Shown: positions 1-47,515, numbered from the stretch's first letter. The stretch: DNA of 50,240 nucleotides from Candidatus Nomurabacteria bacterium (GCA_020632135.1 JACKGC010000001.1:1-50240), one strand, 5' to 3'. A program made the numbers and translations. Notes: generated from the letters alone by a model not told the origin.

Positions 1-308
1 GCCCGAGGATTCGAAGCCCGATTGAGCTGGATTGTGAGCCTGCGAAACAATCCAGCCAATTGGGGTACTGAAACTGTAAGTTTCGAGTCCTCGTGGACCC
101 GCGAGTACCGAAAAAAGTCCGTCAGGACTTTTTTCGTTTGTACGAGCGAGGTCCACGAGGACGAGAACCGAGTCGCGGCGAAGCCCGCAGCCGGAGCGAA
201 GCGGAGGCGAGGACCGCGACGAGTGGAGGTCAAGGGAGCGAGCTATTTTTGAGTCTGCAAGACGAACAAAATAGCCGCGAGAGTGACCGAGTCCTCGTGG
301 ACCCGCCA
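1..308 (+). mobile_element. Two stacked target-duplicating structured inserts downstream of a tRNA that lies outside the window (left end truncated)
   Basis: The tRNA-like 3' end CGAGTCCTCGTGGACCCGC occurs at 84-102 and 288-306, the second followed by CA to give CCA. An antisense copy GGTCCACGAGGAC sits at 150-162. GAAGCCCGATTGAG (13-26) and CCAATTGGGGTACTGAA (56-72) are identical to 9839-9852 and 9881-9897. Confidence 0.7.
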
Positions 309-2121: not shown

Positions 2122-2343
2122 CGAGTACAAAAATGAGCATCCTTATTGGATGCCATTTTTGTTCGTGCGGCGGGAGAAAGCAAACTGCTTTGCTTTCGTC
2201 TGGATTCGAAGCTCCGGACGATGTTTTGTGAGCTTTCCAAGCGAACAAAACGAGGAGGAGCCGTCCAAGAAACCGAGTCTCGTTTGCGAGCGGAGCAAAA
2301 CAAACGAGCCGGTATTCGGGGACGAATCCAGCCCGGCGCACCA
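2104..2343 (+). mobile_element. Target-duplicating insert on the 3' side of tRNA-Tyr
   Basis: A 19-bp direct repeat CGAATCCAGCCCGGCGCAC lies at 2104-2122 and 2323-2341, the second followed by CA. The antisense target is split as 2163-2174 plus 2200-2210 around a 25-nt hairpin (2175-2199). The core at 2260-2322 is homologous to 47260-47323. Confidence 0.8.
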
Positions 2344-9390: not shown

Positions 9391-9598
9391 CAGTCGTAAA
9401 ACGCAGAAGTTCCTGTCTTAGGACAGGAACTTCTGCGTTTTAGCAAGCAAACTGCTTTGCTTGCGTGCGACTGTCCGAGGCGCGGCGATGTAATTTGCTC
9501 GTTCCTAGAGCAAATTACGAGCGAGCCGGGGTCGCAGGTACTTACTAGAATTGGAGCGCAGCGAACAATTATAGTTAGTAACCTGTGACGACAGCAGT
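9391..9598 (+). mobile_element. Structured insert downstream of tRNA-Lys (same family)
   Basis: A 20-bp perfect inverted repeat is followed by the 25-nt hairpin (9442-9466) and then GCGACTGTCCG, which is antisense to the tRNA end and trailer. The core at 9521-9589 is homologous to 29353-29419. Only a short GACAG duplication is visible. Confidence 0.7.
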
Positions 9599-9684: not shown

Positions 9685-9766
9685 GCGCAGGTGGCGAAAT
9701 TGGTATACGCGCTAGTTTTAGGCACTAGTGGAGCAATCCGTGGAGGTTCAAGTCCTCTCCTGCGCA
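9685..9766 (+). tRNA. tRNA-Leu (TAG)
   Basis: Acceptor GCGCAGG/CCTGCGC, anticodon arm CTAGT-TTTAGGC-ACTAG, long variable arm and GGTTCAAGTCC. Confidence 0.95.
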
Positions 9767-10064
9767 CAAAGCAAGTCCGCGTGTAGCGGGCTTTTTGTGT
9801 GCAGGAAGCAAAGTCTGGGAGACTGTGCATGAGGGCTTGAAGCCCGATTGAGACACGATCCGACCAGCGGGAGGATCTGTCCAATTGGGGTACTGAACGT
9901 GTAGCGTTCAAGTCCTCTCCTGCGCACAAAGCAAGTCCGCGTGTAGCGGGCTTTTTGTGTGCAGGAAGCAAAGTCTGGGAGACTGTGCATGAGGGCTTGA
10001 AGCCCGATTGAGACACGATCCGACCAGCGGGAGGATCTGTCCAATTGGGGTACTGAACGTGTAG
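9746..10064 (+). repeat. Two identical tandem copies (160-bp period) of a tRNA-Leu-targeted insert
   Basis: 9746-9904 equals 9906-10064. Each unit is the tRNA-Leu 3' end, a hairpin, the split antisense target and a core shared with 13-72. Confidence 0.9.
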
Positions 10065-10089
10065 GGTTCAATTCCCGCTCCCGGCACCA
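10065..10089 (+). pseudogene. Orphan 3' fragment of a different tRNA-Leu-like gene, ending in CCA
   Basis: GGTTCAATTCCCGCTCCCGGCACCA does not match tRNA-Leu(TAG). It is 3 mismatches from the 3' end of tRNA-Leu(TAA). Confidence 0.7.
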
Positions 10090-28038: not shown

Positions 28039-29271
28039 ATGGAACAGATACGATCAGACGTGGAGTCATTTGCACGGATCCGAGTGGTTGGTGTTGGTGG
28101 TTCTGGTAAGAACGCGGTGAACCACATGGTCTCTTCAAAGGTGAAGGGGGTGGAATTTATTGCCATCAACAGTGACGCGCAAGACCTGCACCACTCACTC
28201 GCAAAACGAAAGATCCACATTGGTAAGAACCTTACCCGCGGCCTCGGCGCTGGCGGTAACCCTGACATGGGCCGACGCGCTGCAGAAGAAACTCGAGAAG
28301 AGATCGCGAACGCGATCAAAGGATCCGACATGATCTTCATCACTGGTGGTATGGGTGGTGGCACCGGTACTGGCTCAGCACCAGTCGTGGCTAAGATCGC
28401 TCGCGAGAGCGGCGCCCTCACAGTGGGAGTCGTCACCAAGCCATTTCTCTTTGAGGGTCAGGAGCGCATGCGCTTAGCTTTACAAGGCATTGAAGAGTTG
28501 AAGCAAGAAGTAGATGCACTCATTACCATTCCTAACGACCGCCTGCTCGCGATCGTCGATAAGGAAACCACGGTGAGCAGCGCCTTTGAGCAATGTGACA
28601 ATATTCTCCGCCAGGCAGTTGAAGGTATTTCTGATCTCATCACCATGCCCGGTATAATCAACGTTGACTTCGCCGACATTCGAAGCGTTATGGAGAATGC
28701 TGGATCTGCTCTGATGGGCGTGGGTATCTCTTCTGGAGAAAAGCGTGCTGAAGAAGCGGCCCAAGCTGCTATCAATTCACCACTACTTGAAGTGTCTATC
28801 ACTGGTGCGAAGGGTGTACTCTTTGCGATTGCGGGAGGCGACGACCTCGGTATGCTCGAGATCCAAGATGCAGCACGTGTGATTACTGAATCAATCGACC
28901 CACAAGCGCGTGTGATCTTTGGTGCAATCCGTGACGAAAAGCTGAAGAAGAACGAACTCAAGGTCACAGTGATCGCCACCGGTTTCCCTGAAGAATCAGG
29001 CCATGGCAGCAACTACAGCATTGCGCGCCGCGCACCGGTGGCCGCAGAGACGCGTGAGCGCGAAGTGGAAGAAGACAAAGAGCCAGTGCGTGGCAAGATC
29101 TTCAATTCCCTACCAAAAAAACCTGAAGTAACGAAGCCAACTGAACCAATAAAGCCCACCCCAACCGAGCCGCCCAAGCGCGACCCGAAGCCAATCGATG
29201 CTGCTGACGACACCGACGATGATGACTGGGGCGCGGTTCCTGCATTCTTGCGTCGGAGTAAGCTGAAGTAA
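28039..29271 (+). CDS. ftsZ: Cell division protein FtsZ
   Basis: [15 protein letters not shown], tubulin signature GGGTGTG, NVDFAD and C-terminal VPAFLRR. Confidence 0.98.
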
Positions 29272-29457
29272 GCCACTTGCGCTGTTCGCAAGTATGCGGA
29301 ACCGCGAAGCGCAACAATGTGAGGAGCGGCTTTAGCCCGCCGCGACGAACCAGCGAGCTGGGGTCGCGAACACTTAGTAGATTTAAGCGAAGCGAAGGAT
29401 ATACTTAGTGATTCGTGACCGGTTCCTGCATTCTTGCGTCGGAGTAAGTTGAAATAA
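29234..29457 (+). mobile_element. Target-duplicating insert at the ftsZ 3' end (same family as the tRNA inserts)
   Basis: A 38-bp direct repeat lies at 29234-29271 and 29420-29457 with 2 mismatches. An internal ATGCGGAACCGCG is antisense to the target. The core is homologous to the tRNA-Lys insert. Confidence 0.8.
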
Positions 29458-32765: not shown

Positions 32766-32840
32766 GGCCCCATCGTCTAACGGCTAGGACGCCAGGTTTT
32801 CATTCTGGAAATCGGAGTTCGATTCTCCGTGGGGTCACCA
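32766..32840 (+). tRNA. tRNA-Glu (TTC), CCA encoded
   Basis: Acceptor GGCCCCA/TGGGGTC, anticodon arm CCAGG-TTTTCAT-TCTGG and GTTCGATTC. Confidence 0.95.
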
Positions 32841-34335
32841 ACGAAGATTTATCACGTTTATACTCCTCAGATAGTGAGTAAATAGGCGACAAAACAGCGG
32901 TTCCAAAACCGTTGTTTTGTGTATAAGGAATACTGCCCTCGAAAATAAAATTTTGGAACCGTAGCCTTTTTTCAGGCTGTTTTACCAATCGCTTCCAAGT
33001 ATCAGGAGTATCAATAATGAAACTTATGCAGTAATCAAGAGCGGCTTCAAAGTCTAATTCGCCACCCCGCACTTCAATCAAGTTACTTTGAGCGGCATAT
33101 AGCTGTCGTTCCACTTCTCGTTTTCGTTCTAAGAAGTCAGTCTTGGTATAGATACCCTCTTCAAAATTGTTAAAGATGGCTTTCTTTTTCTCATACAGGC
33201 TAGCGACCTGCTGTCTAACCGTCTCGTTTTGTTTTTCAGCATTGGTGTTATCTTCTCGATAAATTTCCATACACGCCTCTTTGAAAGCGTTGGCAAATTC
33301 AAAGGTAGGATTTATCTCCTCTAGAAAAGAGACAAATGATTCTTCAAGGTCTTTCTTTTTGATTGATTTAGCGTGCGGACAACCTTGTTTGTGATGATGA
33401 TAATAACCGTGCTTCTTGCCACCACGTCCAGTCGAAAAGCTACCTGTTAATGGATCATCACACCACTCGCAAGAAACCAGTCTGCGAAGTGGAAAATTAG
33501 GATTCTTTTCTTGTTTCTTTGTTCCCTTATGTGACCGTCCGGCACCTTGGCATTTATAAAATAGTGACTCAGTGACAATAGGTTCATGTTGTCCTTTGAC
33601 TTCGATGCCCCATTCATCCTTTTTCACGATACCAGCATACAGAGGGTTATGGATCATTTTTTGAATAGTTTGAAACTCAATCTTTTTGCCAGATTTTGAG
33701 CGTAGACCTTTTTCAAATAAGAGAGTGGCTAGAGTTTTGTATGTATGAGTCCCTTTCACATACTCATTGAAAGCGAGGCGGACATACTGAGCGTCGTTAT
33801 CAGGCACCATAACGCCGCCTTTTTCTAGACGTTGATAACCTGTAGGAGCCGGCCAGACCCAGATTCCTTGCTTAAGGCGTTCTCGCATACCAGTCGAGCT
33901 ACGTTCAGAGCGGATACTGTTATCAAATTCAGCTGAAGCAGACAATGTGCCCATTAAGAATTTTCCGATTGGTGATTCATCAACCGGTTCAGTAGCAGAG
34001 CGAATAGTGACACCATATTTATTAAGACTGTTTTGAACAGCGAAGTGATCGGTCTGACTACGAGAAAAGCGGTCTAATTTATATACTATGAAAAAATCAA
34101 TCTGGTTTTTCTTTTGACCACAAAATGAAATTGCTTTAAGAAACTGAGGACGATCGGCAGTTTTAGCAGATTCGCCTCGATCAACAAACACATCAGCAAC
34201 TTCTATACCTTCACGTTCGGCATATTCACGACAAATCCGCTCCTGTGATTCAAGACTAGTTCCATCCACCTGTTCGAGCGAAGACACGCGACAATAGATA
34301 ATCCCTCGCTTTCCTGTCATATCAGTATCATACAT
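32800..34335 (-). CDS. Large serine recombinase (resolvase + recombinase + Zn-ribbon domains), 511 aa
   Basis: Catalytic Ser in IYCRVSS, DRGESAKTADRPQF, VYKLDRFSR, GIWVWPAPTGY, HEPIV and CEWC...HHKQGC. The C-terminus runs into the antisense strand of tRNA-Glu. Confidence 0.95.
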   Translation of the reverse strand: MYDTDMTGKRGIIYCRVSSLEQVDGTSLESQERICREYAEREGIEVADVFVDRGESAKTADRPQFLKAISFCGQKKNQIDFFIVYKLDRFSRSQTDHFAVQNSLNKYGVTIRSATEPVDESPIGKFLMGTLSASAEFDNSIRSERSSTGMRERLKQGIWVWPAPTGYQRLEKGGVMVPDNDAQYVRLAFNEYVKGTHTYKTLATLLFEKGLRSKSGKKIEFQTIQKMIHNPLYAGIVKKDEWGIEVKGQHEPIVTESLFYKCQGAGRSHKGTKKQEKNPNFPLRRLVSCEWCDDPLTGSFSTGRGGKKHGYYHHHKQGCPHAKSIKKKDLEESFVSFLEEINPTFEFANAFKEACMEIYREDNTNAEKQNETVRQQVASLYEKKKAIFNNFEEGIYTKTDFLERKREVERQLYAAQSNLIEVRGGELDFEAALDYCISFIIDTPDTWKRLVKQPEKRLRFQNFIFEGSIPYTQNNGFGTAVLSPIYSLSEEYKRDKSSLVTPRRIELRFPE

Positions 34336-47132: not shown

Positions 47133-47515
47133 CAAAGACAAAATAGCGTCCCGCAAGGGCGCATATTTTGTTTGCGGAAGCGAGCAAGCCAACTACTTGG
47201 CTTGCGTGAGGGATTCGAAGCTGCGGAGCATGTGCTGAGCTTGCGAAGCACAGCGAGCAGCCGTCCAAGAACACGAGCTGTTTTCGAGCACAGAGTGTGA
47301 GAAAAACAGCCGTGATTCTGGGACGAATCCCTCCGCCTGTTGAAAATACCGCCGTGAGGCGGTTATTTTCTTAGGCGGAAGCGGAGCAAAGTGCCCTGCG
47401 GCACTTTGCGTAGGGATAAGAAAGCCGGAGCGATGTCGCGCGGAGCGGAGCGAGCACGACACGCGAGGCGGGGTCGCGAAAAATTTTTACAGAAAATTTA
47501 TCAGTGACCGAATCC
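47115..47515 (+). mobile_element. Two stacked target-duplicating inserts downstream of tRNA-Ser
   Basis: CGAATCCCTCCGC lies at 47115-47127 and 47324-47336. A perfect 22-nt antisense of the tRNA end is split by a 25-nt hairpin (47183-47207). The second unit has a 27-nt hairpin (47385-47411) and ends GTGACC-GAATCC. Confidence 0.8.

Follow-up and report, generated by a model that had tools for sequence, protein, structure and literature searches.

Behind the tRNA-Tyr gene of a Candidatus Nomurabacteria genome lies a short segment that is antisense to the end of that gene and is interrupted by a hairpin. The locus raises the question of whether this segment serves the tRNA, for example by governing its 3′ end, or belongs to an element that has inserted there. 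The window is the whole stretch of 50,240 nt that was analysed (GCA_020632135.1, JACKGC010000001.1:1–50240); positions refer to it, and the features described lie on the plus strand unless stated otherwise.

Layout of the tRNA-Tyr unit

The tRNA-Tyr gene (anticodon GTA) spans positions 2039–2122, as called by ARAGORN and matched by the Rfam tRNA model at 59.5 bits, and the tRNA ends at 2121/2122. From C56 (2104) to its 3′ end the gene is made up of sequence that the insert provides. Residues T54–C74 (2102–2122), assigned from the sequence and by a register test, constitute the left, functional copy of the target and form the ascending strand of a long hairpin. The top of this hairpin (2123–2162), located in a terminator scan, is composed of an element-borne trailer (GAGTAC, following C74) and a terminator-like stem-loop at 2137–2153 with A- and T-tracts. 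The trailer is seen again at other units as CGAGTAC or CGAATAC, counted from C74 into the element bases.

The antisense segment, or guide, follows in two halves. The 5′ half TCGTGCGGCGGG (2163–2174) is antisense to nt 65–76, covering the acceptor 3′ strand, the discriminator and the first trailer bases, and the 3′ half CTGGATTCGAA (2200–2210) is antisense to T54–G64, covering the T-loop and the T-stem 3′ strand. Between them lies the 25-nt HP hairpin AGAAAGCAAACTGCTTTGCTTTCGT (2175–2199), which consists of an unpaired A, a 9-bp Watson–Crick stem, a CTGC loop and an unpaired GT, and forms the branch of a three-way junction. When the hairpin is removed, the joined halves are the reverse complement of 2102–2124 at 22 of 23 positions, with one G·G mismatch; the left copy itself is paired with the guide at 20 of 21 positions. 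The 3′ half forms an 11-bp lower helix, and the crossover, between T55 (2103) and C56 (2104) within the T-loop, lies inside this helix, 2 bp from its base. From T54 to the end of the guide the long hairpin measures 109 nt, close to the family mean of about 105 nt (n = 61 units).

The guide is followed by a structured core (P2, P3; 2211–2322) that ends in GGGGA and folds better than shuffled sequence on both strands (z about −3). Next come the right copy, C56–A73 plus CCA (2323–2343), which matches the left copy at 18 of 18 positions and is the displaced original tRNA-Tyr 3′ end, and the original terminator (2344–2371; terminator scan). The order in the element is thus replacement tRNA 3′ end, trailer, terminator, antisense copy and structured core, with the displaced original end behind it.

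Occupancy of the site and duplication of its end

Across the genus the tRNA-Tyr genes are 95–100% identical, but the orthologous site may be empty or variously occupied. At one empty site (L103) the tRNA is followed by CCA, a terminator and then the same downstream gene as in the window. This arrangement indicates that the right copy, CCA and terminator (2323–2371) are the original end and that 2104–2322 was inserted. Elsewhere the tRNA-Tyr site holds a unit of another core type, a variant without the hairpin, a trailer-type unit (L106) or a serine-integrase island (L098, L104). Such variable occupancy at nearly identical tRNAs points to fast turnover.

The right and left copies are identical at 18 of 49 loci and agree at 15 or more of 18 positions at 26 of 49; right copies that are not identical are mostly 3′-truncated. 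The duplicated length is 5, 19 or 38 nt, according to what is needed to restore the gene (overall range 5–38 nt), and this variation disfavours a staggered cut that yields a target-site duplication of fixed length. Units of the family are about 150–250 nt long and encode no protein, and no ORF is shared between them.

The antisense arm is matched to its host gene and pairs in cis

The arm is matched to whichever tRNA or tmRNA hosts the element. In a fixed-register comparison, with no search for the best match, the arms of 67 units lying directly behind 16 kinds of tRNA or tmRNA were 73% Watson–Crick paired with their own locus, compared with 49.5 ± 1.2% after permutation (1000 permutations, maximum 53%). 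A search that allowed for the split found 69 of 116 units with at least 19 of 21 positions complementary to the sequence just upstream, 26 of them perfect, whereas guides permuted among loci reached this level in 3 of 349 cases. An independent, GTDB-wide sample of 120 loci reproduced the result, with 55 of 114 guides paired at 19 or more of 21 positions. The arms therefore fit their own locus far better than other tRNAs, as the first-pass annotation of this DNA had supposed. The split made by HP invariably falls between nt 64 and nt 65 of the target, which places it 11 nt from T54 and 9 nt from the crossover.

The partner of the arm is the upstream, functional tRNA end; the downstream copy matches much more weakly. 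Pairing continues past nt 74 into the trailer, with both next bases paired in 41 of 61 units, and runs unbroken through the trailer into the terminator stem. The resulting cis hairpin of about 105 nt has a mean folding energy of −66.6 kcal/mol (n = 61 units), and its sole branch is HP. Because the pairing reaches the element's own trailer and terminator, the arm is the descending strand of a cis hairpin and not a free guide that acts in trans. Pairing of the arm with a mature tRNA, in the manner of a primer-binding site, was rejected for the same reason, namely that it runs into the trailer.

These features bear on a possible role for the arm in the host tRNA. The first-pass annotation had suggested that a transcribed guide could sequester the 3′ end of the pre-tRNA and let the downstream copy be used instead. 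We find no support for such end-swapping: the downstream copy is the displaced original, intact at only 18 of 49 loci and often truncated, a terminator T-tract sits between tRNA and guide, and the complementarity of the guide continues into the element's trailer and terminator stem. More generally, the unit could be a cis-acting RNA device through which the arm controls termination, 3′ processing (e.g. by RNase III) or the choice of 3′ copy. The arm is indeed complementary to the tRNA 3′ end and trailer, transcription would turn the perfect duplex of about 40 bp into a substrate for RNase III, and some units may be co-transcribed with their tRNA. We nevertheless regard a device of this sort as very improbable. 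Species whose tRNAs are identical differ in occupancy, and sites that lack a unit function all the same; besides the state of the downstream copy and the position of the guide after the T-tract, the duplex would force open the T-arm of the functional tRNA, and the same architecture occurs at the 3′ end of ftsZ and at trailer positions.

The HP hairpin behaves as an exchangeable module

The stems of the Tyr, Ser and Lys hairpins were noted at the outset to differ by paired changes, and this is borne out: the 9-bp stems differ only in a C–G to A–T exchange (Tyr) and an A–T to C–G exchange (Ser). For a wider comparison, a covariance model was built that spans 10 nt of the 5′ guide, the hairpin, the 3′ guide and the start of the core, and 117 hairpin copies from 94 loci were aligned (114 distinct rows, 66 distinct hairpin sequences). 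The covariation holds with this larger set. Within the stem, 99.7% of 1025 cells are paired, all nine pairs show double changes (227 doubly changed cells) and G·U occurs in 3 of 1025 cells; none of 500 shuffles matched this level, and slid registers were 28–50% paired. The A before the stem (116/117), the closing G–C pair, the C-T-G-C loop (104–110 of 117 copies), and the G (114/117) and T (110/117) after the stem are nearly invariant. Templated repair can also maintain perfect Watson–Crick pairing in palindromes, in place of selection.

HP can be present or absent without change in the guide: removal of 25 nt from one unit (L123) yields exactly the contiguous guide of another (L122). Orthologous units with cores 90–94% identical may carry quite different HP stems, and one and the same HP is found on very different cores, which is why HP behaves as an exchangeable module with its own constraint. 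The existence of hairpin-less units means that it cannot be essential to the family. The nearly invariant loop and flanks, covarying stem, fixed position and optional presence together give it the behaviour of a recognition module set into a variable, target-matched helix at a three-way junction. That much of the initial description stands; binding of the hairpin by a protein, proposed with it, is an inference.

Two resemblances of individual parts were considered and dismissed. HP resembles Helicobacter pylori difH GAAAACTGCACTTTTC (PMC3325230), but it was rejected as a double-stranded, dif-like Xer site because its arms covary rather than being conserved and its spacer is 4 nt, not 6 nt. A hammerhead-like strand in P2 (GAUGUGAG...CGAAC) was also rejected, since the core contains no invariant CUGANGA and matches no model.

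Units of different types in the window

Three further hairpins named in the first-pass annotation were found where it had placed them, at a Lys, a Leu and a second Ser unit, and its reading of the first Ser unit as a second split guide was likewise accurate. In this Ser(CGA) unit (47173–47219) the guide halves at 47173–47182 and 47208–47219 surround HP AGCAAGCCAACTACTTGGCTTGCGT (47183–47207) and match the tRNA-Ser end at 22 of 22 positions. A second Ser unit, stacked behind it, carries a 27-nt variant of HP at 47385–47411, read from the sequence.

The Lys(CTT) unit (9442–9477) is of the trailer type. Its HP (9442–9466) is followed by the guide segment g3 (9467–9477), whose partner is the trailer together with the final 5 nt of the tRNA; the unit's 5′ half is the descending strand of the terminator. 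In trailer-type units (Lys(CTT), Arg(GCG) and similar) the 11-bp lower helix is formed with the tRNA's final 4–5 nt and the trailer, the terminator itself serves as the upper helix, and the geometry is the same as in T-loop units. The right junction of the Lys unit, GTGAC|GACAG, lies 2 nt into the lower helix, as in T-loop units.

At Leu(TAG) the guide is split by a variant hairpin (9807–9830) with a TGGGA loop and one A·G mismatch, which model R1 misses and which occurs again at 9967–9990 in a tandem copy. Tandem and stacked units are thus found at the Leu and Ser loci. The Leu(TAG) array comprises two identical 160-bp units in tandem behind the tRNA (9746–10089) and terminates in a different Leu-type 3′ end with CCA (GGTTCAATTCCCGCTCCCGGCACCA). 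HP, 25–27 nt in length, interrupts the arm in about two thirds of this genome's units (counted by eye). It is absent from the units at 1–308, in ftsZ (29234–29457) and behind Phe, Gln and Gly(GCC), where the guide is contiguous or short.

Distribution of the module

The module model finds 12–16 sites in this 744-kb genome. Of 150 genomes from the family, 137 carry the module, each in 1–19 copies, and 10 of 300 further genomes from elsewhere in the phylum also have it. GTDB species genomes contain the exact 25-mer AGMAAGCAAACTGCTTTGCTTKCGT at no fewer than 120 positions; among the matches listed are Patescibacteria of many classes, 12 Saccharibacteria, 7 Elusimicrobia and 2 Campylobacterales metagenome-assembled genomes (MAGs), the last of which could be binning errors. 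When 120 of the exact-25-mer loci were sampled, 95 lay behind a tRNA or tmRNA on the same strand. The distribution is patchy and extends across phyla.

Searches of phage and plasmid collections and of IMG/VR gave no match to the element. Against Rfam 15, including its self-cleaving ribozymes, only the tRNA passed the gathering threshold, and permissive scans of two units returned nothing beyond chance-level hits to terminator-like hairpins. A search of the literature found no description of the element.

Two loci from the Campylobacterales side, one in a Campylobacterales MAG (L128) and one in a Sulfurospirillum MAG (L206), combine the exact hairpin with a related core that ends in GGTGAC, and lie after a protein-coding gene. 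The GC content of their contigs looks atypical for Campylobacterota, so mis-binning is possible. The L206 locus has a flanking duplication of about 120 nt.

Candidate enzymes

None of the candidate partners examined across the 150 genomes (TnpB, IS110, reverse transcriptase, serine recombinases, Y1) tracks the module convincingly, and among 120 loci no neighbouring protein family recurs; clustering of the neighbours gave only housekeeping genes. TnpB occurs in 1 of the 150 genomes, the IS110 DEDD domain (PF01548) in 14 and reverse transcriptase in 42, the latter two being absent from the present genome. Y1 HUH proteins (96 of 150) show a weak positive association with the module, in that 92 of 137 genomes with it have a Y1 hit as against 4 of 13 without it; 45 module-bearing genomes have no such hit. 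The local Y1 protein was discarded as a partner because it is RAYT-like and flanked by its own REPs, which are unlike HP. It is a 220–230-aa Y1 HUH protein with an HFHLLL motif, located outside the window on contig C1 of this genome (G000:C1:482400–483700) with palindromic repeats TTGCGAAGGCCTTTCCTCCGCAA on both sides; gene and flanking repeats are a REP–RAYT system in a CPR genome.

A tyrosine recombinase of the Xer type is present in 144 of 150 genomes, usually as one copy, and is the only near-universal recombinase that co-occurs with the module. The sole tyrosine recombinase of this genome scores 148 bits, compared with the IntI cut-off of 265, and passes the XerA-type model. If used by the element, this single Xer-type enzyme would need to work on sites that resemble no known dif.

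Serine recombinases are found in 105 of 150 genomes, and large serine-recombinase islands occupy the same tRNA sites as the units, at two of the tRNA-Tyr orthologues mentioned above and at tRNA-Glu. Together with the palindromic nature of TTCGAA in the T-loop and the RAYT–REP system in this genome, these islands speak for a rival account. The palindrome may be a by-product, in which inverted copies of the tRNA end, left by orientation-blind serine or tyrosine integrases at TTCGAA or by fold-back copying at the terminator, have been joined by an independent REP-like hairpin, the units being decaying remnants of integrase islands. We doubt this account and consider it improbable. The arm is perfect or nearly so at most loci despite diverged cores with compensatory changes, and HP is found at one fixed position in at least 16 sequence contexts, with its loop and flanks conserved across phyla. 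No serine recombinase occurs in the genomes with 12–15 units, the REPs of the RAYT differ from HP, and the same type of hairpin appears in separate elements on the 5′ side of tRNA genes.

The tRNA-Glu locus (32766–32840) illustrates the serine-recombinase islands. On the minus strand, a 511-aa ORF with a serine-recombinase (resolvase) domain (32800–34335) has its end within sequence antisense to the T-arm of tRNA-Glu. A search of the window at up to 3 mismatches found no further copy of the 3′ end of this tRNA.

DNA-like and RNA-like features

Our analysis leans towards an element that folds as DNA. The signature is more DNA-like than RNA-like, given that a terminator T-tract precedes the guide in this family, the arm is buried in the hairpin, G·U pairs are scarce in HP and arm mismatches show no bias towards wobble (G·T 34, A·C 25). 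A scan of the Tyr unit found no promoter inside it. The core is less clear-cut. About 7% of its pairs are G·U/G·T, its top strand is G-rich and its raw energy is lower on the tRNA-sense strand. This gap looked like strong evidence for RNA; with composition controlled, the asymmetry between strands is modest (z −3.09 vs −2.75, p = 0.004). The G·U pairs of the core and its slightly better fold on the tRNA-sense strand would also be explained by RNA. Some Elusimicrobia units contain no separate terminator stem before the guide, which makes co-transcription with the tRNA likely there.

The apical loops of P2 and P3 (e.g. 47245–47260 and 29384–29396) often read GCGAAGC, GCGTAGC or ACGAAGT, which are C(GNA)G triloops with covarying flanks. 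The C(GNA)G triloop is an unusually stable mini-hairpin motif in DNA. Such mini-hairpins number 136 on the top strand, where about 60 are expected, and 36 on the bottom strand, about four times fewer; part of this excess stems from a conserved GCCGGAGC stem strand. The enrichment is a weak hint of DNA folding.

An RNA counterpart of the system can be formulated in which the unit, transcribed by read-through or from an unrecognised promoter, provides a scaffold of hairpin and core that binds a recombinase or transposase, and the arm selects the tRNA gene, in the manner of IS110 bridge RNA or seekRNA. The conserved scaffold, covarying stems and target-matched 21-nt arm fit this scheme, as do the tolerance of the core for G·U, its somewhat better folding on the tRNA-sense strand and the Elusimicrobia units described above. 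We consider RNA-guided insertion unlikely, if still worth weighing. The enzymes it calls for are far rarer than the module (IS110-type DEDD in 14 and TnpB in 1 of 150 genomes, against the module in 137), and no protein recurs beside the units. In this family the T-tract comes before the guide and the unit contains no promoter, the arm is tied up in a highly stable cis hairpin formed with the copy and trailer that the element itself carries, and wobble is not enriched in arm or hairpin. Finally, the two halves of the arm address the same strand, which the loops of a bridge RNA do not.

A proposed folded attachment site in single-stranded DNA

We tentatively favour the view that a non-autonomous insertion element uses the long hairpin, folded from a single strand, as its attachment site, and that HP is the recognition and register handle of this site. 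In single-stranded form the long hairpin would mimic the double-stranded end of a tRNA gene, in the manner of integron attC or the CTX phage attP(+). A host or helper recombinase acting in trans would exchange strands 2 bp inside the 11-bp lower helix. HP would mark the antisense arm and set the register at one helical turn from the crossover, capping the lower helix as an architectural and recognition handle. Taken together, arm and hairpin look like the docking and addressing part of an undescribed insertion route into tRNA genes.

Insertion is supported by the empty or variously occupied tRNA-Tyr orthologues, above all the original arrangement at the empty site, and a folded hairpin by cis pairing that continues into trailer and terminator in 41 of 61 units at a mean of −66.6 kcal/mol. 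The reading of this hairpin as an attachment site draws on the identical geometry of T-loop and trailer-type units and on the tandem and stacked arrays. The lack of coding capacity and of a recurrent neighbouring gene, the DNA-like signature and the patchy spread across phyla also speak for this view. Weighing against it are the non-dif sites that an Xer-type enzyme would face, the G·U pairs and strand preference of the core, the Elusimicrobia units without a terminator stem, the hairpin-less units and the possibility that templated repair keeps the palindrome paired.

A bolder version, which we consider distinctly unlikely, is a protein-less insertion addressed by nucleic acid, with the 21-nt arm as a programmable address and the CTGC hairpin as a universal docking site for the enzyme. 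The arm would pair with the target strand between two cuts, and the paired stretch would become the duplication. The docked enzyme might be a housekeeping protein, and a changed arm would retarget insertion. Such a mechanism would be distinct from IS110 bridge RNAs, TnpB/Cas guides and the tetranucleotide guides of IS608. The probability left over from the folded attachment site, RNA-guided insertion, the by-product palindrome and the cis-acting device falls to some explanation outside these four.

If a trans-mobilised docking and addressing system of this kind is real, it is compact (<250 nt), its site is set by about 20 nt of complementarity and it repairs its target gene, which would be of interest both to mobile-DNA biology and to genome engineering. 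It would also explain the rapid turnover at tRNA genes in ultra-small CPR genomes that contain almost no transposases. As an exact 25-nt sequence present in cultivable lineages (Saccharibacteria, Elusimicrobia), HP offers a bait for the missing enzyme. On the least exciting reading, the unit is a structured repeat, widespread but uncatalogued, that ought to be masked during annotation, since it gives rise to spurious ORFs and partial tRNA hits.

Comparison with known systems

By analogy, the element would work most like attC and the CTX attP(+); its location is that of tRNA-targeting islands, and an internal guide is something it has in common with IS608 and IS110. Each system with which it was compared has a defining feature that the element lacks.

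Like integron cassettes, the units are protein-less and stacked at one fixed site, with an enzyme proposed here to act in trans. Features of the family that recall attC, read from sequence and folds, are the long hairpin, the branch and the tandem units; the recombination site would, as with attC, be an imperfect hairpin of one strand, in which structure outweighs sequence, with protruding markers and a crossover near the base of the stem. Unlike attC, there is no R-box (RYYYAAC/GTTRRRY), and the hairpin base is instead formed by the T-loop TTCGAA and its complement or, at Lys and Arg, by the trailer. The stem is a copy of the target gene's end and varies with the target, and the protrusion is a whole 25-nt hairpin and not single extrahelical bases. 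The platform is a tRNA gene rather than attI, and there is no integron integrase.

Like the CTX-phage class of IMEX, whose folded single-stranded attP is recombined by the host Xer enzymes, the element has no recombinase of its own, its one-strand forked hairpin would mimic a double-stranded target, and a near-universal Xer-type enzyme is the only recombinase that co-occurs with it. It differs from these phages in targeting the T-loop or 3′ end of a tRNA rather than dif, and in being 150–250 nt long with no replication genes. That the element might use Xer is purely our inference.

With islands in tRNA and tmRNA genes (T-loop sublocation) the element shares a direct repeat of the tRNA 3′ end that restores the gene, the use of tmRNA and the formation of tandem arrays; at tRNA-Tyr the repeat, C56–A73, is exact at 18 of 18 positions. 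It differs from tRNA islands, CIMEs and MITE-like remnants in its tiny size and in the absence of an integrase in or near the unit, and from a classical attP in its conserved folded core, antisense copy of the target and conserved hairpin.

Like IS200/IS605 elements and PATEs, it would be active in the form of single-stranded DNA, the shape of its hairpins would be what is recognised and a short internal sequence would pair with the target or cleavage site, and non-autonomous, hairpin-only derivatives of IS200/IS605 exist. The guide, however, is 21 nt here as against 4–5 nt, and IS200/IS605 neither duplicates nor restores its target, whereas 5–38 nt are duplicated here. The bridge RNA or seekRNA of IS110/IS1111 is similar in having a structured non-coding part, target-complementary segments that flank a stem-loop, and site-specific insertion. 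It differs in that most genomes studied here contain no DEDD recombinase, the arm is enclosed within a cis hairpin and there is no donor-binding loop. The two halves of the arm are antisense to a single contiguous strand (T54–C74), where a bridge RNA addresses opposite strands of its target. Unlike a primer-binding site of the retroviral type, in which about 18 nt pair with a CCA-ended tRNA beside a reverse transcriptase, the pairing here enters a trailer that is not CCA (CGA at Tyr).

Related sequences at other positions

A separate insert lies upstream of tRNA-Tyr at 1850–2056. It begins with a 12-bp hairpin, duplicates the first 18 nt of the tRNA and contains a segment antisense to the D-loop region (ATTGACCAC). 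Inserts of this sort on the 5′ side also occur at six other loci (L100, L104, L106, L115, L123 and L125), and in relatives their hairpin often has the same CTGC loop and abuts the displaced tRNA 5′ end.

At the start of the window (1–308) are two stacked hairpin-less units whose tRNA gene precedes position 1; the guide of the second is an uninterrupted 20 nt (GCGAGGTCCACGAGGACGAGAA), and the final C of its target copy is followed by the GAGTAC trailer also seen in the Tyr unit. The hairpin-less unit at 29234–29457 has the core type of the family and lies in the 3′ end of ftsZ. Its 38-nt duplication takes in the final 11 codons and the stop codon and shows two synonymous differences, its guide is only 8–10 nt long (GCGGAACCGC) and it ends GTGAC|CGGTTCC.

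Shorter traces are found elsewhere. Behind tRNA-Lys(TTT) (360744) and tRNA-Leu(GAG) (387659), outside the window on contig C1 of this genome (G000:C1), and at a third locus (L112), a terminator is followed by 7–11 nt antisense to the acceptor 3′ strand, with neither hairpin nor core. The antisense stretch at Lys(TTT) ends exactly where the hairpin would be expected to start, and all three stubs may be remnants that persist after the rest of the unit was lost.
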